Origin: Escherichia coli | GTDB lineage: Bacteria; Pseudomonadota; Gammaproteobacteria; Enterobacterales; Enterobacteriaceae | NCBI RefSeq assembly: GCF_045037415.1 | Contig: NZ_CP173439.1 | Length of the DNA stretch: 64,000 nucleotides | Direction: 5' to 3' (one strand) | Shown: piece after piece, positions 9,138-56,503 of the stretch | Layout: each line of letters begins with the position of its first letter | Position numbering within the stretch: the stretch's first letter is position 1 | The notes under the pieces: model-generated | What the model was told of the DNA's origin: nothing | The model's input: only the letters and a program-made list of their open reading frames with translations | Database searches by the model: none | Translations under genes and position numbers: made by a program

Positions 9138-9169
9138 CATTTGGATATAGAGAATTATTGTACGTTCAG
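9138..9169. repeat. partial copy of a 38-bp Tn3-family-like terminal repeat (tttggatatagagaattattgtac...)
   Basis: Shares the core tttggatat.ga.aattattgtac with copies at 32001, 42145 and 56465. Confidence 0.4.
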
Positions 9170-9465
9170 CACAACAAACTTAATACTAATGTATGCATAC
9201 ATTAGCATTAACTACACATTTAAGACATTAACCATTAATAATGTGTATTATTACACAATATTACCCATCAGGAAGCACGTCGTCAGTATTAGAAAAAAAT
9301 TACAAACGCTCGCCGCAGGCCCAGCGACCGAACGTTAGTGAGCGAGGAAGCGGAAGAGTGTCAGGTCTGAATTGAGCACATACGCCAGAAATTATATAGT
9401 AAAAAGATATATGATTTTTACATTGCTCAGTAGATTGTAAAATGCTGCTGATTGGATATCTATAT

Positions 9466-25350: not shown

Positions 25351-27321
25351 ATGTATATGAACGTAATCAGAAACGTCATTTGTACATTAATCATACTCCC
25401 GATAGGGTTACAGGCAGAGACCAGTCATTCTTCTATGGCTAAAGATACAATCACCGTTGTCGCGACAGGAAATCAGAACACGGTATTTGAAACGCCGTCA
25501 ATGGTCAGTGTCGTCACGAATGACACGCCATGGAGTCAGAATGCGGTCACATCAGCCGGCATGCTGAAAGGTGTTGCCGGTCTCAGCCAGACTGGTGCAG
25601 GACGGACCAATGGGCAGACCTTTAATCTACGCGGCTATGACAAAAGCGGGGTACTTGTTCTTGTTGACGGCATCCGTCAACTCAGTGACATGGCAAAAAG
25701 CAGTGGCACTTATCTGGATCCGGCACTCGTCAAACGTATCGAAGTTGTCCGCGGACCAAACTCCAGTCTGTACGGCAGTGGCGGGCTGGGAGGTGTTGTG
25801 GACTTCAGAACTGCCGATGCAGCAGATTTCCTTCCCCCCGGAGAGACAAACGGTTTAAGTCTGTGGGGAAATATCGCCAGTGGTGACCACAGCACAGGCT
25901 CGGGGCTCACCTGGTTCGGTAAAACCGGAAAAACAGATGCGCTCCTTTCTGTCATTATGCGTAAAAGAGGTAATATCTATCAAAGTGATGGTGAGCGCGC
26001 ACCTAACAAGGAAAAACCTGCAGCCCTGTTTGCGAAAGGCTCTGTCGGTATAACAGACAGTAACAAAGCAGGTGCCAGCTTGCGTCTCTACCGGAATAAC
26101 ACCACTGAACCGGGCAATCCCACTCAGACACATGGTGACAGCGGCCTGCGTGACAGAAAAACAGTACAAAATGACGTACAGTTCTGGTACCAGTACGCTC
26201 CTGTGGATAACAGCCTCATCAATGTAAAGTCAACTTTATATCTCAGTGATATCACTATCAAGACAAACGGTCACAACAAAACGGCAGAATGGAGAAACAA
26301 CAGAACCTCCGGTGTTAATGTTGTCAACAGGAGTCATACTCTGATTTTTCCGGGAGCCCATCAGTTAAGTTATGGCGCTGAATATTACCGTCAGCAGCAG
26401 AAGCCAGAAGGCTCTGCCACACTATATCCGGAAGGAAACATTGACTTTACATCGTTGTATTTCCAGGATGAAATGACAATGAAAAGCTACCCGGTTAACA
26501 TTATCGTCGGTTCCCGCTATGACCGGTACAAGAGCTTCAATCCCCGTGCCGGAGAACTGAAAGCCGAACGCCTGTCCCCAAGGGCGGCGATTTCAGTCTC
26601 ACCGACAGACTGGCTGATGATGTACGGCTCCATATCCTCTGCATTCCGTGCCCCCACAATGGCAGAAATGTACAGGGATGATGTACATTTTTACCGCAAG
26701 GGTAAACCCAATTACTGGGTACCTAACCTTAATCTGAAACCAGAAAATAACATTACCCGTGAGATTGGCGCAGGTATTCAACTGGACGGCCTGCTTACAG
26801 GCAATGATCGGCTGCAGTTGAAAGGCGGATATTTCGGAACGGATGCCAGAAACTATATTGCCACGCGCGTGGATATGAAACGGATGCGTTCTTATTCTTA
26901 TAATGTATCCCGGGCCCGTATCTGGGGATGGGATATGCAGGGAAATTACCAGTCTGATTATTTTGACTGGATGCTTTCTTATAACCGCACGGAAAGTATG
27001 GATGCCAGCAGCAGGGAATGGCTGGGCTCCGGCAATCCTGACACACTCATCAGTGACATCAGTATACCTGTTGGTCATGGAGGAGTTTCTGCCGGATGGC
27101 GTGCTGAACTTTCGGCAGCAGCCACGCATGTGAAAAAAGGCGATCCCCATCAGGCTGGCTATGCCGTACATTCCTTTTCACTGTCTTATAAGCCTGTAAG
27201 TGTTAAAGGCTTTGAGGCATCAGTGACTCTGGATAATGCCTTCAACAAGCTTGCCATGAATGGCAAAGGAGTGCCGCTTTCAGGCAGAACTGTCAGTCTT
27301 TATACCCGTTATCAGTGGTAA
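25351..27321 (+). CDS. TonB-dependent outer-membrane receptor, heme/hemoglobin (ChuA/ShuA-like) family
   Basis: 656 aa; signal peptide, plug-domain motifs, C-terminal ...RYQW; overall resemblance to ChuA. Confidence 0.8.
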   Translation: MYMNVIRNVICTLIILPIGLQAETSHSSMAKDTITVVATGNQNTVFETPSMVSVVTNDTPWSQNAVTSAGMLKGVAGLSQTGAGRTNGQTFNLRGYDKSGVLVLVDGIRQLSDMAKSSGTYLDPALVKRIEVVRGPNSSLYGSGGLGGVVDFRTADAADFLPPGETNGLSLWGNIASGDHSTGSGLTWFGKTGKTDALLSVIMRKRGNIYQSDGERAPNKEKPAALFAKGSVGITDSNKAGASLRLYRNNTTEPGNPTQTHGDSGLRDRKTVQNDVQFWYQYAPVDNSLINVKSTLYLSDITIKTNGHNKTAEWRNNRTSGVNVVNRSHTLIFPGAHQLSYGAEYYRQQQKPEGSATLYPEGNIDFTSLYFQDEMTMKSYPVNIIVGSRYDRYKSFNPRAGELKAERLSPRAAISVSPTDWLMMYGSISSAFRAPTMAEMYRDDVHFYRKGKPNYWVPNLNLKPENNITREIGAGIQLDGLLTGNDRLQLKGGYFGTDARNYIATRVDMKRMRSYSYNVSRARIWGWDMQGNYQSDYFDWMLSYNRTESMDASSREWLGSGNPDTLISDISIPVGHGGVSAGWRAELSAAATHVKKGDPHQAGYAVHSFSLSYKPVSVKGFEASVTLDNAFNKLAMNGKGVPLSGRTVSLYTRYQW

Positions 27322-27327
27322 CAAATC

Positions 27328-28119
27328 ATGATGAAAAATACAGGTTATATCTTAGCTCTTTGTCTGACAGCATCGGGGCATGTCCTGGCCCACGATGTCT
27401 GGATTACAGGTAAACAGGCAGAGAACAACATTACCGCAGAGATTGGTTATGGTCATAATTTCCCCTCAAAGGGCACAATTCCTGACAGAAGGAATTTCTT
27501 TGAAAATCCCCGGATTTATAACGGGAAAGAGACAATAACACTGAAGCCAGCGTCCACGGATTATGTCTATAAAACTGAGTCTGCAAGCAAAGATAATGGC
27601 TACGTTTTGTCAACATATATGAAACCGGGATACTGGTCGAGAACCTCTTCAGGATGGAAACCGGTCAGCCGGGAGGGCAGAAATGATGTGGCTTACTGTG
27701 AGTTTGTCACTAAATATGCGAAATCTTTTATTCCTGGTGAACAGCAGATGCCAGCACAACTCTATCAGTCTCCAACGGGGCATGAGCTTGAAATCATTCC
27801 GTTATCCGATATAAGTCGTTTCAGTGAAGATGTGAAGCTGAAAGTCCTGTATAAAACGTCCCCGCTCGCCGGAGCTATCATGGAGCTTGACTCGGTCAGT
27901 TATCTGAAATCATCCCGTCATACTCATGCAGTTGAGCACAAACATCCTGTTCATAAAGCAGAACTCACCTTTGTAACTAATGAGGATGGTATCGTCACAG
28001 TACCTTCTCTTCATATTGGACAGTGGCTGGCGAAAGTCCAAAATAAGAAAAGTTTTCAGGACAAAAGCCTGTGTGATGAAACTGTCGATGTGGCAACTTT
28101 AAGTTTCTCCCGAAATTAA
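27328..28119 (+). CDS. periplasmic protein co-encoded with the receptor (possibly DUF4198-like)
   Basis: 263 aa with signal peptide, start 6 bp after the receptor stop; family assignment from memory only. Confidence 0.45.
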   Translation: MMKNTGYILALCLTASGHVLAHDVWITGKQAENNITAEIGYGHNFPSKGTIPDRRNFFENPRIYNGKETITLKPASTDYVYKTESASKDNGYVLSTYMKPGYWSRTSSGWKPVSREGRNDVAYCEFVTKYAKSFIPGEQQMPAQLYQSPTGHELEIIPLSDISRFSEDVKLKVLYKTSPLAGAIMELDSVSYLKSSRHTHAVEHKHPVHKAELTFVTNEDGIVTVPSLHIGQWLAKVQNKKSFQDKSLCDETVDVATLSFSRN

Positions 28120-28142
28120 CAATACTATTCCCTGCCCTGAAA

Positions 28143-28847
28143 TTGTAAGCGTGCAGCAAGAACCGTATTGACGGGGATGTGTTATTCAGTCGGCAGTGCT
28201 ACGCGCCAGGGGAGCAGTTCGCCGACCCGGTTTATCGGCCAGTCGGCTATGACGTCAAGGACATAGCGGAGGTAGCTTTCTGGCTCCACTCCGTTCAGTT
28301 TGCACGTCCCGATCAGGCTGTACAGCAGCGCTCCCCGCTCTCCTCCATGATCCGAACCGAAGAACAGGTAGTTTTTGCGGCCCAGACTGACCATCCGCAA
28401 CGCATTTTCAGCGATGTTATTGTCCGCCTCAGCCCAGCCATCATCTGCATAGTACGTCAGCGCCGGCCACTGGTTCAGGGCGTATGCGAACGCTTTCGCC
28501 AGTTCTGAGTGTCGCGACAGGGTTTTCATCTTTTCACGCAGCCAGCTTTCCAGGGATTTCAGCAGCGGTTTCGTTTTCAACTGACGTTCGGCAAGGCGCT
28601 GCTCCGCCGTCATTCCCCTTATCTCTGCCTCGATGGCGTACAGTTCGCCGATCCGTTTCAGCGCTTCCTCCGTCAGGGTTGACGGGGTGCGAACGTGCAC
28701 ATCGTGGATTTTACGGCGGGCGTGAGCCCAACAGGCGGCTTCCGTTATCCGGTCATCCCGGTACAGCTCGTTGAACCCGGCGTATGCATCCGCCTGCAGT
28801 ACACCACTGAACCCCGCAAGATGGGTCTGCGGATGGATGCCTTTTCT
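28143..28847 (-). mobile_element. IS66-family element fragment, truncated by IS21-like copy 2
   Basis: Terminal GTAAGCGTGCAGCAAGAACCG characteristic of IS66-family IRs; adjacent ORF is the C-terminal part of an IS66-type transposase. Confidence 0.6.
28182..28847 (-). pseudogene. IS66-family transposase, 5'-truncated
   Basis: ...[56 protein letters not shown] is a conserved IS66 TnpC C-terminus; reading frame enters the IS21 end. Confidence 0.65.
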
Positions 28848-28908
28848 GTGTCAACGCCACGATGTTTGACCGTTATTTGCCATTTTCATGCCCGCTAAGA
28901 TACTTTCG

Positions 28909-30878
<1,970 letters not shown>

Positions 30879-32000
30879 GTTGATGTCCTTTCTGGTGTGA
30901 GAACCTTAAGGAAACAACATGTTGGGTGGAGCGGACAATCCAAATGGTGAATTACCGTCTTATATCACTGGCGCTGACAAACAGGGATATTGCGACAATT
31001 CACAGCAATATCGTGCAGGAATACAACACCCTTAAAGGGTATAGCTGGAAATGGCTGGGTGGGGTGTCAGTGGCTTTTCTGGTTATGTTCTGTGTGCTCG
31101 GATGGGGAATGAAAACAATACTCGACAGGAACTACAACGCCACAGCGGCGGTGTATCAGAAAGTTGTGACACTGGAAGATAAACTGGTGGAGAAACCTGT
31201 CACGGGGAAGAGCCGGAAAAACTGACGCGCTTCGCTTGTCCAACGCCTCACGACCCGCGAAAGAATTTCGCGAACCGTTCACTGTTTTTTTCAATATGAT
31301 TCTGTCTGCTTTGGTCGATAAAGCAGACGATAGTATTCCAGCCTTCGTATATATAACGGTACGTGCTCATCAGTAAGAGCTGGCGGTATTGTGTTATCAG
31401 GGGGAAGTTTTTTCAGATACTCACGAAATGCCTGGCTTGATGCCATAAAATCTACAGCTGCATCGATAATATGTGGGATATTTTCATCTAATTTTGTCAT
31501 GATGATTGATCTGATATTATCACGGTTCGTGAATTATAGTATGTCACTATTATTTATGCTTTAGTGAACCAGAAAAAATCCCCCGTTGGTATAGGGGGAT
31601 ATGTAAGGAGAAATAACTTCGCAGGTGTTCTTGTTTGTATTATAACGTGAAAAGAATGCACGCAACTTAATTAATCTGCCGTACTTCCTTTCAGTTTTCA
31701 AGATAAGGTTTATAATAAAACATGGAATGGAAGCAAGCTTTAAGGTTTCAGCTCTAAAATTTTTAATATCTATTAACTAGCTAGTTGTTGTCCTTGTGAG
31801 CATGTTGTATATAAAAGCTAGGATAATATCCTGACCGGAGTATTCATATTCCTTATCCCCTCTGTGTTCTCAGAGGTTTTTTTCTGTATTTAATGATATG
31901 AGCTGGAATGCGATTCCGGCCCCCCCCGTTTACATAATTCTCCCTGACATACGGCACCGGAATCGCATTGATTTTGCATTGCTAATGTCTAACTGTGCTG

Positions 32001-32038
32001 GTGAATGTTGGGGGCAGTTTGGATATCGAAAATTATTG
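32001..32038. repeat. 38-bp Tn3-family-like terminal repeat copy (GGGGCAGTTTGGATATCGAAAATTATTGTACGTTAAGG)
   Basis: Starts GGGG, ends ...GTTAAG like Tn3-family IRs; related copies at 42145 and 56465. Confidence 0.45.
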
Positions 32039-32042
32039 TACG

Positions 32043-32389
32043 TTAAGGTTGTTTTTTGACCTTGTCGGGGTCCGCCTGCGGGCAGTAGAGATCATATAAG
32101 GTATTCAATAACGTCATGATGCGGTTATCCCCGATACGGTAATATACCATTTTACCTGCCCGTCGGGTTCGACCAGCTTCAGGCGACGCATGACACCCAA
32201 CTGCTGAGACAGGGTCGGCTGAGTGATACCGACCGCCGCTTCCAGCTCGGTCACATTCGCTTCCCCCTGGCTTAACTGACACATCAACAATAGCCGGTCG
32301 CTGTTGGCCAGTCCCCGTAGGACATCTGCTGCCCCCAGGGCTGCATTTTTCATATCAGTCTGACGTTTTGTGTCTTCATTCATGGGCAT
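32043..32389 (-). pseudogene. ArsR/SmtB-family regulator (BigR/YgaV-like), apparent frameshift
   Basis: HTH region (NVTELEAAVGITQPTLSQQLGVMRRLKLVE) in one frame and the expected wing (GKMVYYRIGDNRI...LYDLYCP) in an overlapping frame; break near a G-run around 32160..32200. Confidence 0.55.
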
Positions 32390-32510
32390 TGCTGGTTTCT
32401 TATATTATGTATTTTTATATAATATTGTTCAGTATAATGATAGTGGCGTAATTTTGCCACCGTGATCTTCAGGTCTGCAGCGTCCAGCTGGACCGGGTAA
32501 CTAATTATAT

Positions 32511-34208
32511 ATGGCAGATATTTTGCCCCGAGTGAACAGAGAGGATGTAATGAAAATAGTGATTGTTGGTGGTGTTGCCGGGGGAGCATCCGCTGCAGCC
32601 AGGGCTCGTCGGTTATCAGAGGATGTCAGTATTGTTGTGTTTGAGCGGGGAAGCGATGTCTCTTTCGCCAACTGTGGATTGCCTTATCATATAGGCGGAA
32701 AAATTCCGTTACGGCAGTCGCTGATTCTGAAAACCCCGGAGGATTTTAAATCCCGTTTTAACATAGACGTCCGTATCCGTCATGAAGTGATGTCAGTAGA
32801 CCCGGTTAATAAGATGGTGACGGTTAAAAATCTGACCTCCGGGGAGGTCTATACCGAAGAATGGGATCGTCTGCTCCTCAGTACCGGTGCCGCTCCGGTT
32901 GTTCCCCCCTTGCCCGGACTACAGGAAGCGGGTGTCTTTACACTGCGAAATCTTACTGACATGGATGCTATCCAGGCGTGGATTGAGCAACATAATATCG
33001 CTCACACCACGCTTGTCGGGGGGGGATTTATCGGGCTCGAAGTGATGGAGGCACTGAGCGAAAGGGGGATCAGTGTGACCCTGCTGGAGATGGGGGAACA
33101 GGTTATGGCTCCGGTTGATCCTGAAATGGCATCGGCCCTGCATCAGGAAATCAGGAGTCATGGCGTGGATCTGCGTCTCAGAACGGCGCTCACCGAGGTA
33201 CTGCGGACAGAGACGGGATTCCGCGTTGCACTGTCTGACGGTGGGTTTCTGCAGACCGACATGGTTATTCTCGCCATCGGGGTAAAACCTGAGAGCAGCC
33301 TTGCCACAGGAGCCGGGCTCGCCGTGGGTAAACGGGGAGGCATAAGTGTCAATGCCTGTATGCAGACAAGTATCCCTGACATCTATGCCGTGGGGGATGC
33401 AGTTGAAACACCTGACCTTGTCTTTCAGGAACCCGCTAATGTTCCTCTGGCAGGGCCAGCCAACCGCCAGGGACGCATTGCTGCTGATAATATGCTCGAT
33501 CGTCACAGCCTTTACCATGGCAGTCAGGGGACATCCATTTGTAAGGTATTTTCGCTGAGTATTGGCAGTGTCGGGGCGAATGAAAAGCAGCTGAAAGCCC
33601 ATGGTACCCGATACGAGAAGGTTTACGTCCATGCCGCTGATCATGCCAGTTACTACCCGGGGGCAACAATGATCAGTCTGAAACTGCTGTTCAGCCCCGA
33701 TACCGGTAAAATTCTCGGGGCCCAGGCGTCAGGGAAAAAAGGGGTTGATAAACGCATCGATGTCCTGGCTGTCGTACAGCGCGCGGGGCTTACCGTTAAC
33801 GATCTCGAGCATCTGGAGCTGACCTATGCTCCGCCTTTCAACAGTGCAAGGGACGTCGTTAACCAGGCTGGAATGGTGGCGGCAAATGTTATCAAGGGTG
33901 ATACGGTCATCTGTCATGTCCGCGATGTGTTACAACGGGAACCGGGCAGTTATTGTTTACTTGATATTCGTTCTCCTGCAGAACTGAAACAATTTGGTGA
34001 ATATCCTGACGCGCTATCCATCCCTCTTGATTCCCTGCGGGAGAATCTTGATAAGTTGCCTGAAGATAAAGAGATTATTATCGGGTGTCAGAGTGGTCTG
34101 CGGGGGCATGTGGCATACCGTATGCTTCAGTCTCACGGCTTCCGGACATATAATCTGAGTGGTGGTTTTATAACTTGGCAGGCGGTTACGGAATCAATGA
34201 GTCAATAA
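32511..34208 (+). CDS. CoA-disulfide/persulfide reductase with C-terminal rhodanese domain
   Basis: 565 aa; FAD-binding GGVAGG start, pyridine-nucleotide disulfide oxidoreductase core with redox Cys (SFANCGLPY), C-terminal rhodanese with active-site Cys (IIIGCQSGLRG). Confidence 0.85.
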   Translation: MADILPRVNREDVMKIVIVGGVAGGASAAARARRLSEDVSIVVFERGSDVSFANCGLPYHIGGKIPLRQSLILKTPEDFKSRFNIDVRIRHEVMSVDPVNKMVTVKNLTSGEVYTEEWDRLLLSTGAAPVVPPLPGLQEAGVFTLRNLTDMDAIQAWIEQHNIAHTTLVGGGFIGLEVMEALSERGISVTLLEMGEQVMAPVDPEMASALHQEIRSHGVDLRLRTALTEVLRTETGFRVALSDGGFLQTDMVILAIGVKPESSLATGAGLAVGKRGGISVNACMQTSIPDIYAVGDAVETPDLVFQEPANVPLAGPANRQGRIAADNMLDRHSLYHGSQGTSICKVFSLSIGSVGANEKQLKAHGTRYEKVYVHAADHASYYPGATMISLKLLFSPDTGKILGAQASGKKGVDKRIDVLAVVQRAGLTVNDLEHLELTYAPPFNSARDVVNQAGMVAANVIKGDTVICHVRDVLQREPGSYCLLDIRSPAELKQFGEYPDALSIPLDSLRENLDKLPEDKEIIIGCQSGLRGHVAYRMLQSHGFRTYNLSGGFITWQAVTESMSQ

Positions 34209-34486
34209 GAGATGAGGTGCCATACACATGGCACCTCATCTTCCAGATTCATTGAAAACGTATTATATGGAATAGAAATCTACAAAAATAATTAACACCC
34301 TGGATGGTACCCTATTGCGATAATGTGGACTGTTCAAAAAACAGGCTTACCGTACAATAATTCTCTATATCCAAACTGACCCCAATGTTCCTGAATGTAA
34401 ATCTCCGTACAAAGATATCGTTGAGTTTTATATAATTCATTGTTTTTATTGTGTTTTGTTTTTTTTGGTTGTGCTGGTTTGTAGTT

Positions 34487-34512
34487 ATAAAAAACCCCTG
34501 GGAATCCAGGGG
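34487..34512 (-). terminator. possible Rho-independent terminator (minus strand)
   Basis: GC stem cccctgg/ccagggg with a 4-nt loop, followed on the minus strand by a T-run. Confidence 0.3.
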
Positions 34513-35571
34513 TAGGTAAGGAAAACAAATGATACTCAGTTAGTGTTGCACTTTAAACGGGTTGAAGTATAACTCGTATTAAATGAGATGTTGAAAATAA
34601 GTGAAAACCATTGCTGGTTGCAATAGGGCAGTATGCGTAAAAAATAAATTTGTGATGCTTTTCAAAAAAACAATTAATACATGAATATTACAGCTCATAT
34701 ATTACAGTTTATAAAAAACTGTGTTTTATCTATTACATAGAGAAAAATTCTTATCCTGAGCTGTGAACTTGGTTGTTTCGTTTGATATATATCTTTGTAA
34801 ATGTGGTTTATTATGCGGGCATTTTTTATTGAGTATTGAATCAGAATAAGTGATGCAGCTAAATTTATTTGCGTAACTATTTCATTGTCAATATTCTGAC
34901 TCAATCTGACACCTATCGTTTCTCTTGGATTCCCCACTTTTGTGGTTTTTTATCCGGAACGGGATAGTGCCAGTTGTTTTTTATCAGCCTCAGGGTATTT
35001 TGGGGCGGTTGCGAACATTGACGCATTCCACAACTAAAAAAAATTTCTCACAGACTCTGATTCTTGCCCCGACCCTTGGTCGGTTTTTTTTTGTCCTGGC
35101 GAAACGTGAAGCTCTGAAACAGGAAACCCCGTCAGAGCGCCACGCACCAGGGGAGAAAACTTGTCGTTTTGAGCCGTTCGGTGTTCAGAACGCACGAAAC
35201 CGATCGCACATCGCTTTCGTGCATAGTTATGCAACGCCCTGAAAACGATTCTGACGCGTTTTTCTGGTTTGGCCTGGTGTTTTCTTGTCTTTTTGCGTTT
35301 TTTGCGCCAGAAAGCGATTGAGGGCGTTTTACATGGTACGTACAACGGGAGTTATGGTAAATGGATCGGGTTTTCGGGAAGGTTCGACAGGATTTGCCGT
35401 TGGGTGTAGTGTAAGCGACTGAAAAACAAACGCCCCTGAAATCATGTCCAGATCCGGCAGAACCAGCCTCATGCGCAGTTCTGGCTGGTTTTTGACGTTG
35501 ATCGCGAGGGGGCAGCGATTGACTGGAGCGACCGGAACGCTCCCGCGCCGAACATCACCGTAAAAAATCCT

Positions 35572-36138
35572 GTGAACGGTCATGCTCACCTGCTCTACGC
35601 GCTCAATATCGCCGTGAGAACCGCGCCGGACAGCTCGGTTAAGGCGCTGAAATACGCCGCTGCGATTGAACGTTCGCTGTGTGAGAAACTTTGTGCTGAT
35701 GTGAACTACAGCGGACTGATTTGTAAAAATCCGTTCCACCTGGAATGGCAGGTGATGGAGTGGCGAGAGGAAGCCTATACCCTCGATGAACTGGCTGATT
35801 ATCTCGATTTGAGCGCCTCAGCGCGCCGTAGCATCGATAAACATTACGGGATGGGGCGAAACTGCCACCTGTTCGAAATGACGCGCAAATGGGCTTACAG
35901 GGCGATTCGTCAGGGCTGGCCCGAATTCTCACAGTGGCTTGATGCCGTGATTCAGCGTGTCGAAATGTACAACGCATCGCTTTCCGTTCCGCTTTCACCG
36001 CCTGAATGTCGGGCTATTGGCAAGAGCATTGCGAAATACACGCACAGGAACTTCACGCCGGAAACTTTCGCACAGTATGTGGCTGATACGCACACATTAA
36101 CGTACGTTTTCGTTCCATTGGCCCTCACCCCCCGATAA
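35572..36138 (+). CDS. ColE2-type replicase / PriCT-domain Rep protein, probably 5'-truncated or frameshifted
   Basis: Conserved sequence continues ~45 codons upstream of the annotated start (..FWLVFDVDREGAAIDWSDRNAPAPNITVKNPVNGHAHLLYAL..) with no start codon and stops just beyond; C-terminal PriCT-like region (ECRAIGKSIAKYTHRNFTPETF). Confidence 0.5.
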   Translation: MNGHAHLLYALNIAVRTAPDSSVKALKYAAAIERSLCEKLCADVNYSGLICKNPFHLEWQVMEWREEAYTLDELADYLDLSASARRSIDKHYGMGRNCHLFEMTRKWAYRAIRQGWPEFSQWLDAVIQRVEMYNASLSVPLSPPECRAIGKSIAKYTHRNFTPETFAQYVADTHTLTYVFVPLALTPR

Positions 36139-38298: not shown

Positions 38299-40560
38299 AT
38301 GAACGTTATAAAACTGGCTATCGGCTCAGGCATATTATTGCTCAGCTGCGGTGCTTACTCACAATCCATCAGTGAAAAAACTAATTCCGACAAAAAAGGA
38401 GCGGCAGAATTCAGTCCGCTCAGCGTTTCTGTCGGGAAGACGACCAGTGAGCAGGAAGCTCTCGAGAAAACAGGCGCGACCAGTTCCCGGACAACGGACA
38501 AAAACCTGCAATCACTTGACGCAACAGTGCGTAGTATGCCTGGTACTTATACTCAAATAGATCCTGGTCAGGGAGCAATCAGTGTGAATATTCGAGGCAT
38601 GAGCGGATTTGGTCGTGTAAACACTATGGTCGATGGTATTACCCAGAGTTTTTACGGAACCTCTACCTCCGGAACAACGACGCATGGTTCAACTAACAAT
38701 ATGGCTGGCGTACTTATAGATCCTAACTTACTGGTAGCAGTTGATGTTACACGCGGTGACAGCAGTGGCTCTGAAGGGATCAACGCCCTTGCCGGTAGTG
38801 CAAATATGCGTACTATTGGCGTTGACGATGTAATATTTAACGGTAATACATATGGCCTTCGTTCACGTTTCTCTGTCGGTAGTAATGGGCTGGGACGCAG
38901 CGGAATGATCGCCCTTGGTGGAAAAAGCGACGCTTTTACGGATACGGGAAGCATTGGCGTTATGGCTGCTGTGAGCGGCAGTTCTGTGTACTCTAATTTC
39001 TCAAATGGTTCTGGAATTAACAGCAAAGAGTTTGGTTATGATAAATATATGAAGCAGAACCCCAAATCCCAACTGTATAAAATGGATATCAGACCAGACG
39101 AATTTAACAGCTTCGAACTTTCCGCTCGAACCTATGAAAATAAATTTACACGTCGTGATATAACCAGTGACGACTATTACATTAAATATCATTACACCCC
39201 TTTTTCTGAATTAATTGACTTTAACGTAACGGCCAGTACCAGTCGCGGTAATCAAAAGTATCGTGATGGCTCGCTGTATACTTTCTACAAAACCTCAGCG
39301 CAAAATCGTTCTGACGCGCTGGATATCAACAATACCAGCCGGTTCACTGTCGCGGACAATGACCTGGAGTTTATGCTGGGCAGCAAACTGATGCGTACCC
39401 GCTATGACCGGACCATTCACTCAGCGGCGGGCGACCCGAAAGCGAATCAGGAATCGATCGAGAACAATCCGTTCGCACCCTCCGGCCAGCAGGATATTTC
39501 AGCGCTGTATACCGGGCTGAAGGTTACGCGCGGCATCTGGGAGGCAGATTTCAATCTCAACTACACACGTAACAGGATCACAGGGTACAAGCCCGCCTGC
39601 GATTCACGCGTTATCTGCGTGCCACAGGGTAGCTACGATATTGACGATAAAGAGGGTGGCTTCAACCCTTCAGTTCAGCTTTCTGCTCAGGTAACACCAT
39701 GGCTTCAGCCGTTCATTGGCTACAGCAAATCCATGCGCGCCCCGAACATCCAGGAGATGTTCTTCTCTAATTCAGGAGGCGCATCCATGAACCCATTCCT
39801 GAAGCCTGAACGTGCAGAAACCTGGCAGGCGGGTTTTAACATTGATACCAGAGATTTACTGGTCGAACAGGATGCCCTGCGCTTTAAGGCTCTGGCGTAC
39901 CGCAGCAGGATCCAGAACTACATCTACAGCGAGTCTTATCTGGTTTGTTCTGGAGGTCGTAAATGCAGTCTGCCTGAGGTGATTGGCAATGGCTGGGAGG
40001 GCATTAGCGATGAATACAGCGACAATATGTACATCTACGTTAACTCGGCAAGCGACGTTATCGCAAAGGGCTTCGAACTGGAGATGGATTATGATGCAGG
40101 TTTTGCTTTTGGTCGACTCTCTTTCAGCCAGCAGCAAACAGACCAGCCAACCTCCATCGCCAGCACCCACTTTGGCGCAGGGGATATAACCGAACTGCCC
40201 AGAAAATACATGACGCTGGATACTGGTGTTCGCTTCTTCGATAACGCGTTGACCCTGGGCACTATCATAAAATACACAGGCAAGGCTCGTCGCCTGTCGC
40301 CTGATTTTGAGCAGGACGAACATACCGGCGCAATAATCAAACAGGATTTGCCGCAGATCCCAACGATTATCGATCTCTATGGTACTTACGAGTACAACCG
40401 CAACCTGACACTGAAACTTTCGGTACAAAACCTGATGAACAGAGATTATTCGGAGGCGCTGAATAAGCTCAACATGATGCCAGGTCTTGGTGACGAAACC
40501 CACCCAGCCAATTCCGCGCGTGGCAGAACATGGATATTTGGCGGGGATATTCGTTTCTGA
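38299..40560 (+). CDS. TonB-dependent outer-membrane receptor (YncD-like)
   Basis: 753 aa; signal peptide, plug then beta-barrel, C-terminal ...WIFGGDIRF. Confidence 0.85.
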   Translation: MNVIKLAIGSGILLLSCGAYSQSISEKTNSDKKGAAEFSPLSVSVGKTTSEQEALEKTGATSSRTTDKNLQSLDATVRSMPGTYTQIDPGQGAISVNIRGMSGFGRVNTMVDGITQSFYGTSTSGTTTHGSTNNMAGVLIDPNLLVAVDVTRGDSSGSEGINALAGSANMRTIGVDDVIFNGNTYGLRSRFSVGSNGLGRSGMIALGGKSDAFTDTGSIGVMAAVSGSSVYSNFSNGSGINSKEFGYDKYMKQNPKSQLYKMDIRPDEFNSFELSARTYENKFTRRDITSDDYYIKYHYTPFSELIDFNVTASTSRGNQKYRDGSLYTFYKTSAQNRSDALDINNTSRFTVADNDLEFMLGSKLMRTRYDRTIHSAAGDPKANQESIENNPFAPSGQQDISALYTGLKVTRGIWEADFNLNYTRNRITGYKPACDSRVICVPQGSYDIDDKEGGFNPSVQLSAQVTPWLQPFIGYSKSMRAPNIQEMFFSNSGGASMNPFLKPERAETWQAGFNIDTRDLLVEQDALRFKALAYRSRIQNYIYSESYLVCSGGRKCSLPEVIGNGWEGISDEYSDNMYIYVNSASDVIAKGFELEMDYDAGFAFGRLSFSQQQTDQPTSIASTHFGAGDITELPRKYMTLDTGVRFFDNALTLGTIIKYTGKARRLSPDFEQDEHTGAIIKQDLPQIPTIIDLYGTYEYNRNLTLKLSVQNLMNRDYSEALNKLNMMPGLGDETHPANSARGRTWIFGGDIRF

Positions 40561-42144: not shown

Positions 42145-42182
42145 GGGGTGAGTTTGGATATGGAAATTATTGTACTATAAGG
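42145..42182. repeat. 38-bp Tn3-family-like terminal repeat copy (GGGGTGAGTTTGGATATGGAAATTATTGTACTATAAGG)
   Basis: Same family as 32001 and 56465; followed by ~85 bp that recurs at 12437..12520. Confidence 0.45.
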
Positions 42183-56464: not shown

Positions 56465-56503
56465 GGGGTCAGTTTGGATATAGAGAATTATTGTACTATA
56501 AGG
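56465..56503. repeat. 38-bp Tn3-family-like terminal repeat copy (GGGGTCAGTTTGGATATAGAGAATTATTGTACTATAAG)
   Basis: 38 bp from GGGG to TAAG; forms the junction that truncates scsC. Confidence 0.5.

Follow-up and report, generated by a model that had tools for sequence, protein, structure and literature searches.

Here, we report that a divergent pair of genes on Escherichia coli contig NZ_CP173439.1, encoding a BigR/SqrR-type regulator of the ArsR family and a reductase with a rhodanese domain, probably forms a reactive-sulfur defence module that is carried by a non-autonomous Tn3-family cassette and whose repressor is truncated in this sequence. The pair lies in a stretch of 64,000 nucleotides (the window) that had been read before from its letters and open reading frames (ORFs) only. 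This sequence-only reading described the pair and a frameshift in the regulator; it had not seen the pair as the cargo of a Tn3-family cassette within a captured small plasmid. The features are collected in Table 1.

The missing base in the regulator gene

The minus-strand regulator gene is split by a −1 frameshift in this sequence. In the ORF listing it appears as two overlapping ORFs in different frames, one of 91 amino acids (32114..32389) which aligns to positions 2-66 of the NCBIfam BigR profile, i.e., the helix-turn-helix, and one of 79 amino acids (32043..32282) which aligns to positions 64-94, i.e., the wing and the C terminus. That the helix-turn-helix and the wing are in different frames, as had been proposed, is therefore borne out. 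Base-by-base comparison with three near-identical plasmids (NZ_CP053232.1, CP077326.1, and NZ_CP069461.1) placed the lesion between 32168 and 32169, where one base is absent, and found it to be the only difference inside the regulator gene; the references read CGTCGGGTCTCGACCAG where the window reads CGTCGGGT-TCGACCAG, and at 32165..32174 the intact allele is GGGTCTCGACC and the frameshifted allele GGGTTCGACC. The absent base is a plus-strand C, i.e., the coding-strand G of the GAG codon of Glu74. Restoring it gives a continuous protein of 115 amino acids identical to WP_023144239.1, which is annotated as intact in RefSeq, so the earlier expectation that one added G would restore an ArsR protein of about this length was correct. 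The earlier placing of the frameshift in a G-run stands for the −1 frameshift but not for the homopolymer: the lesion adjoins a GGG triplet and lies outside any homopolymer run, and the homopolymer inspection suggested at the time was, for this reason, slightly mis-aimed.

The product encoded in the window consists of 74 native residues, from alpha1 to the recognition helix and including Cys37, followed by 17 out-of-frame residues. It is without the wing, alpha5, and Cys103, i.e., the deletion at codon 74 would cut the repressor directly after the recognition helix and take away its dimerisation helix (alpha5) together with the sensing cysteine. The ArsR/SmtB subfamily model NF033788, with a cut-off of 55 bits, scores the restored protein at 77.6 bits and the encoded 91-amino acid ORF at 54.7 bits, just below the cut-off.

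We then searched plasmid records and E. coli genome records with a 69-base probe centred on the lesion. The extra base was present in every record matched (204 plasmid records and 91 from E. coli genomes), the best match of 98.6% identity being the one-base gap itself. In a collection of 15 billion proteins the exact frameshifted product had no match with either start variant (Met1 or Met3), and the intact 115-amino acid protein was found in at least 993 contigs. A deletion so private to this sequence speaks for an error of sequencing or consensus, in which case the gene would be intact and the module normally regulated, and so does a public contig (P0075/L014) with a different −1 frameshift one codon downstream, 2-5 bases away, i.e., such artefacts do arise in this gene. 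That second frameshift was also considered as the sign of a mutational hot spot, which was rejected because 12 indels and 43 mismatches within 3.6 kb mark the contig as error-ridden. However, homopolymers are the usual site of indel errors in long-read or 454 data, and the lesion is outside of one. Over 24.6 kb, 10 substitutions and two indels separate the window from CP077326.1, its closest relative; one indel is the lesion, and the other is a poly-T length which is also variable among relatives. Substitutions at 40497, 40548, and 42256 are not common to two relatives and point to real private divergence of the window at about this density. Taken together, the clean surroundings, a site outside homopolymers, and the other private substitutions tip the balance somewhat towards a real mutation; we consider the deletion to be rather likely real, and an error to be the less probable explanation, with a substantial chance all the same.

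Two homopolymers outside the pair also vary in length. The C-run at 31920..31927 is C8 in the window versus C9 in NZ_CP053232.1 and lies in the loop between the two arms (31907..31919 / 31957..31969) of a perfect 13-bp inverted repeat, and the T-run at 34452..34459 is T8 in the window versus T7 or T9 in relatives.

A probable persulfide-type regulator and reductase

The closest solved relatives of the restored regulator are BigR (3PQJ, E=1.9e-22) and SqrR (6O8L, E=1.3e-18), and YgaV is more distant (E=9e-9). In the restored protein Cys37 and Cys103 align with Cys42 and Cys108 of BigR and with Cys41 and Cys107 of SqrR, so that the alignment with YgaV and BigR which the sequence-only reading had called for puts BigR closest and recovers both sensing cysteines. 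BigR occupies the −10 region of its operon and comes off the DNA once persulfide chemistry has bridged Cys42 and Cys108 (PMC5823870); of such regulators, only YgaV, the BigR/SqrR homologue of E. coli, has been studied in this species (PMC9774250).

The divergent reductase gene (32550..34208) is intact, encodes 552 amino acids from the ATG at 32550, and is identical in DNA to the copy annotated WP_001529697.1. Three Pfam domains follow each other on one chain: Pyr_redox_2 (residues 1-291), Pyr_redox_dim (330-432), and Rhodanese (468-545). The best match is Npsr, an NADH-dependent persulfide reductase of Shewanella loihica (PDB ID: 3NTA; E=2.5e-204, 683 bits, 59.7% identity over 541 positions), and the next solved relatives are the coenzyme A (CoA)-disulfide reductase with rhodanese domain (CoADR-RHD) of Bacillus anthracis (3ICR) and CoAPR of Enterococcus faecalis (8A56, E=3.3e-152). 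Both catalytic cysteines align with those of Npsr, i.e., Cys42 (SFANCGLPY) and the rhodanese Cys513 (CQxGxR). CoAPR converts CoA persulfide to CoA and H2S, requires both cysteines, and is induced by sulfide via a persulfide-sensing repressor (PMC9405070). From its sequence, the enzyme here is predicted to be a CoA-dependent persulfide reductase of the Npsr/CoAPR type. With these structural matches and domains, the earlier proposal of a divergent ArsR regulator and reductase pair of the BigR/YgaV sulfide-stress type is supported, the pair being of the BigR/SqrR type.

The generic database names, 'metalloregulator ArsR/SmtB' and 'FAD-dependent oxidoreductase', would rather suggest a metal- or arsenic-sensing ArsR protein next to a generic NADH oxidase or CoA-disulfide reductase with no role in sulfide stress, as would the one mention of the plasmid-borne pair that we found in the literature, an extra 'putative NADH oxidase' in plasmid pMG828-4 given without further comment (PMC3364232); no functional study of the pair was found there. 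We consider this very improbable. The restored regulator lacks both histidine and a CXC motif and has two cysteines in all, which makes a metal site unlikely; these cysteines are of the BigR/SqrR type, and the best matches of the regulator are persulfide sensors. The enzyme ends in a rhodanese domain that includes the catalytic cysteine, and its 683 bits against Npsr compare with about 190 to 330 bits against NADH oxidases and peroxidases.

The pair shares much with the systems that it resembles. BigR (Xylella fastidiosa / Agrobacterium) and SqrR (Rhodobacter capsulatus) have the same ArsR winged-helix fold with aligned sensing cysteines, and they are likewise linked to sulfur genes and have an AT-rich site at their own promoter. 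Their targets are the Blh dioxygenase or SQR, whereas the partner here is a CoADR-rhodanese reductase; unlike BigR and SqrR, the regulator here is plasmid- and cassette-borne, has its C-terminal tail rewritten at a transposon junction, and is truncated at residue 74. The reductase has the three-domain architecture of Npsr (S. loihica PV-4), CoAPR, and the B. anthracis CoADR-RHD, but it is without about 17 residues of an Npsr insertion, and it stands beside an ArsR-type repressor in contrast to the CstR-type repressor (CsoR family) of the known system. Among homologues of the regulator, one from Salmonella (71% identity) has the same divergent CoADR-rhodanese partner, and chromosomal ones of 63-74% identity from Dickeya, Xenorhabdus, and Yersinia head YeeE/YedE-type sulfur-transporter operons. 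These operons (loci L009, L011, L012, and L013) encode two small YeeE/YedE-type (Sulf_transp / DUF6691) membrane proteins.

The AT-rich dyad ATATTAT-N10-ATAATAT, which had been put forward as the operator, does exist at 32402..32425, but only one of its arms and the spacer belong to a conserved element. The window has the dyad without mismatch, as does the IncHI2 copy with 91% identity, a comparison that carries little information, and the more distant homologous loci do not have it as a dyad. The best 14-mer common to six independent loci, TATATTATATAAAA, is located 37-46 bp upstream of the regulator ATG and scored 63/70, against 49.4 ± 1.4 in 200 composition-matched shuffles (0/200 reached it). 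Its copy in the window reads AATATTATATAAAA on the regulator strand with TTATATAA as core palindrome, and it spans the distal arm and the spacer of the dyad; the proximal arm is not conserved. The 14-mer is also found upstream in the YeeE/YedE-linked loci, which suggests that one regulator lineage controls different sulfur-handling cargo. This 14-mer may be both −10 box and operator. On the plus strand a consensus scan gave no full −35/−10 pair for the reductase in this region. For comparison, the SqrR site ATTC-N8-GAAT, the only explicit published site that we found, is absent here, and a BigR-box sequence to set beside the dyad was not found in the accessible literature. The hairpin at 34210..34241, directly behind the reductase, has no T-run and was not called by a terminator scan.

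By analogy with BigR, the winged-helix repressor would bind the AT-rich site overlapping the divergent promoters, and persulfides or polysulfides, the presumed effectors, would bridge Cys37 and Cys103 so that the repressor lets go of the DNA. The reductase, with NAD(P)H, FAD, Cys42, and the rhodanese Cys513, would then convert persulfide or sulfane sulfur to thiol and H2S. If the deletion is real, then the frameshift probably abolishes repressor function, i.e., repression would be lost and the reductase would be derepressed and expressed constitutively.

A cassette with two different ends

The regulator and the reductase are the cargo of a 2,374-bp cassette (32010..34383), which is bracketed by 57-nt inverted repeats whose outer 38 bp are Tn3-family termini. 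The left inverted repeat has one mismatch to the terminus of an autonomous transposon (L005, L006). The same terminus bounds this 6.9-kb transposon on an IncHI2 plasmid (L006 7001..13901), which has tnpA (TnpA WP_000124025.1), tnpR, and a frmRAB cargo, and also a 256-bp element with a 5-bp GTGAA duplication in a small Citrobacter plasmid. The latter element is MITESen1, 253/256 identical to the ISfinder sequence given in Table S2 of PMC13367494. Termini of this kind are present on about 4,000 PLSDB plasmids.

Between the ends, 32074..34235 is native DNA with 91.7% identity to the copies without repeats that IncHI2 plasmids and chromosomes carry. The regulator stop codon is inside the left repeat and the transposon end supplies the last codons, giving a tail of ...VKKQP* in place of the native ...GTGKGNHNNE*. 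The G+C content is 50-56% inside the cassette versus 30-38% outside. No cognate tnpA or tnpR is encoded in the window, and mobilisation of the cassette would presumably occur in trans. As judged from the alignments of its two ends, the cassette is a mosaic of one tnpA-proximal transposon end and one MITESen1 end.

A mosaic could also have arisen in place: a complete Tn3-family transposon with the pair as passengers would have inserted, and its tnpA, tnpR, and res would have been deleted later in situ. The left end, where 53 bp of the tnpA 3′ end are fused out of frame to the 3′ end of the regulator, is as expected after such an internal deletion, and no second insertion site is known. The right end, however, is closer to MITESen1 (54 bp identical, 68/75) than to the other end of the autonomous transposon (84.9%), and no full-length transposon with this cargo was seen. 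Moreover, the IncHI2-type plasmid NZ_CP031135.1 (L017 4001..7132) has the native pair, a methyltransferase gene, and, 0.7 kb downstream of the pair and in matching orientation, a full MITESen1-like copy (91% identical), which suggests assembly before insertion; this arrangement is a plausible precursor of the cassette. We hold deletion in situ to be somewhat unlikely and prefer an assembly in which the autonomous transposon would have contributed its tnpA-proximal end and the MITESen1 miniature element the other. In NZ_CP031135.1 it is the reductase, not the regulator, that is annotated as frameshifted.

The 38-bp repeats are of the same lineage as those of MITESen1, a 256-bp Tn3-derived inverted-repeat miniature element (TIME), of the TIME-COMP elements of Enterobacteriaceae plasmids (Gomi and Yano 2026, PMC13367494), and of mobile insertion cassettes (MICs). 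The cassette has in common with them the missing internal transposase, the flanking direct repeats, the small mobilizable plasmids, and the bracketed cargo. It has the Tn3-family 38-bp inverted repeats (GGGG...TAAG) without a transposase by which Tn3-derived miniature elements are recognized; with 2,374 bp and two genes it exceeds the miniature size of 50-500 bp, and is cassette- or MIC-like rather than a TIME. Nor is it a TIME-COMP, which consists of two complete TIMEs, whereas we found a 75-bp MITESen1-type end and a 53-bp transposon end. It differs further in its cargo, a sulfide-stress module versus an antibiotic-resistance gene in TIME-COMP, and in its 6-bp flanking repeat and single site.

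Table 1. Features of the regulator-reductase pair, its cassette, and the captured plasmid segment (positions in the window)
Feature	Position	Strand	Basis or remark
Segment from pMG828-4-type small Col156/MOBQ plasmid	30980..36095	.	blastn against pEC931_4
Left flanking direct repeat AATGTT, putative target-site duplication	32004..32009	.	read from sequence
Left 38-bp Tn3-family terminal inverted repeat, GGGGGCAG...ACGTTAAG	32010..32047	+	inverted-repeat listing
tnpA-proximal transposon end, 53 bp	32010..32062	+	51/53 identical to L006 7001..7053
Regulator gene, BigR/SqrR-type, ArsR family, 115 amino acids when intact	32043..32389	-	disrupted by 1-bp deletion
ORF actually encoded, 91 amino acids	32114..32389	-	ORF listing, profile match
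Missing-base site, codon Glu74	32168..32169	-	alignments to three near-identical plasmids
Dyad ATATTAT-N10-ATAATAT	32402..32425	.	read from sequence
Candidate sigma-70 promoter of regulator, TGAACA-16-CATAAT, encloses the dyad	32404..32431	-	consensus match only
Conserved 14-mer, candidate operator overlapping regulator promoter	32413..32426	.	six-locus comparison
Perfect TATAAT just downstream of the dyad, candidate −10 box of reductase	32433..32438	+	inferred, read from sequence
CoADR-rhodanese (Npsr/CoAPR-type) putative persulfide reductase, 552 amino acids	32550..34208	+	3NTA match, Pfam
Perfect 14-bp stem hairpin, possible terminator	34210..34241	+	inferred; inverted repeat directly 3′ of reductase stop
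Right MITESen1-type end	34309..34383	-	first 54 bp inward identical to ISfinder MITESen1; 68/75
Right 38-bp terminal inverted repeat, GGGGTCAG...ACGGTAAG	34346..34383	-	read 34383..34346
Right flanking direct repeat AATGTT	34384..34389	.	read from sequence

Probable insertion into a small plasmid and capture by an IncF plasmid

The cassette lies within DNA of a small plasmid. Against pEC931_4, blastn aligned 30980..35448 at 99.0% and 35452..36095 at 95.8% identity; the source is of the 7.46-kb Col156/MOBQ type (pMG828-4), of which 5.1 kb were captured, and the host replicon is a pUTI89-like IncF virulence plasmid with heme-receptor, cjr-type, and senB genes. A megablast search with the joined flanks for an empty site returned 27 records, all of them occupied; a more sensitive search found contiguous flanks, and in 272 related plasmids of ~5.16 kb, including pIGJC156, the cassette flanks are contiguous, i.e., relative to these plasmids the cassette appears as an insertion. 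The evidence as a whole supports a single insertion, after which the cassette would have spread along with the small plasmid and been captured in the IncF plasmid. In the scenario that we favor, the cassette would have entered a pMG828-4-type plasmid once, and the 5.1 kb would later have been captured by the pUTI89-like plasmid.

Two other candidates were rejected. The backbone beside MITESen1 in the small Citrobacter plasmid (L008) was considered as an empty site; it shares the 10-mer TGCTGGTGAA with the left flank in the window and is otherwise unrelated. This 10-mer (window 32000..32007; L008 3289..3298) adjoins MITESen1 in the Citrobacter plasmid and is 4 bp from the cassette in the window, which could be a target preference or chance. 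Copies on E. coli chromosomes, considered as independent insertions of the cassette, are a ~93% native variant without the repeats.

Several findings weigh against the overall reading of a mobile, persulfide-controlled module with a truncated repressor, besides the chance of a sequencing error. The contiguous flanks of the pIGJC156-type plasmids have 73% identity and are diverged at the junction itself. The flanking repeat AATGTT is 6 bp long, and the target-site duplication of the Tn3 family is canonically 5 bp. A 6-bp flanking repeat has, on the other hand, a precedent in Table 1 of PMC13367494. All full-length repeat-bounded copies in complete E. coli genomes share one insertion context and so give no example of repeated mobility. 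Both proteins stay below the cut-offs of the equivalogs: the restored regulator reaches 95.9 bits with NF040642, the BigR equivalog of NCBIfam (cut-off 155), and the reductase scores 490.9 bits against the canonical CoA-disulfide reductase equivalog TIGR03385 (cut-off 578.8). By these profile scores the regulator belongs to a related subfamily, i.e., it is BigR-like and not the BigR equivalog itself. Finally, in E. coli the loss of the repressor might be made good in part by the chromosomal YgaV.

A wider interpretation would be that a MITESen1-lineage cassette moved a persulfide-detoxification module via small mobilizable plasmids to uropathogenic-type IncF plasmids, and that a true knock-out of the repressor, by making the reductase constitutive, adapted this lineage to stress from H2S or reactive sulfur, whether in the gut or in the urinary tract. 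We regard this as unlikely in its full extent and offer it as a tentative suggestion. The components are of known kinds, i.e., a BigR/SqrR-like sensor, an Npsr/CoAPR-like reductase, and a non-autonomous Tn3 cassette of the MITESen1 lineage, and the vehicle is mildly new; current understanding is not overturned and the value is modest. Persulfide sensing and clearance are increasingly tied to antibiotic tolerance and host adaptation, and the plasmid-borne pair of BigR-like repressor and Npsr-like reductase is present on about 200 enterobacterial plasmids, where it is annotated only generically. MITESen1-type ends can package metabolic or stress cargo, and the only systematic survey covered resistance genes alone (PMC13367494). 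The frameshifted allele, if it is real, would be a natural repressor knock-out that is directly comparable with many intact alleles.

Some observations concern the surroundings of the cassette. At 35449..35451 the window lacks about 185 bp of small-plasmid sequence, and 35452..36138 is the truncated replication-initiation gene of the captured plasmid, which is annotated as partial in relatives. Just upstream of this gene, 35318..35338 has six clustered substitutions versus two otherwise near-identical plasmids, which may mark either a patch of recombination or a regulatory site that varies. On the other side, remnants of IS21-family istA and istB (27259..31226; pseudogenes in relatives) directly adjoin the captured segment, and NZ_CP053232.1 has at about 31225 an extra IS3-family insertion which is not in the window. 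Three further remnants of MITESen1/Tn3-type repeats, all in plus orientation, are found at 9140..9170, 42145..42181, and 56465..56502; the first is without the outer 8 bp, and the other two share the inner end ...TTGTACTATAAGG. Neither a mate repeat nor a cognate transposase for them was found in the window, and the three remnants suggest that the plasmid backbone was visited repeatedly by this transposon lineage.

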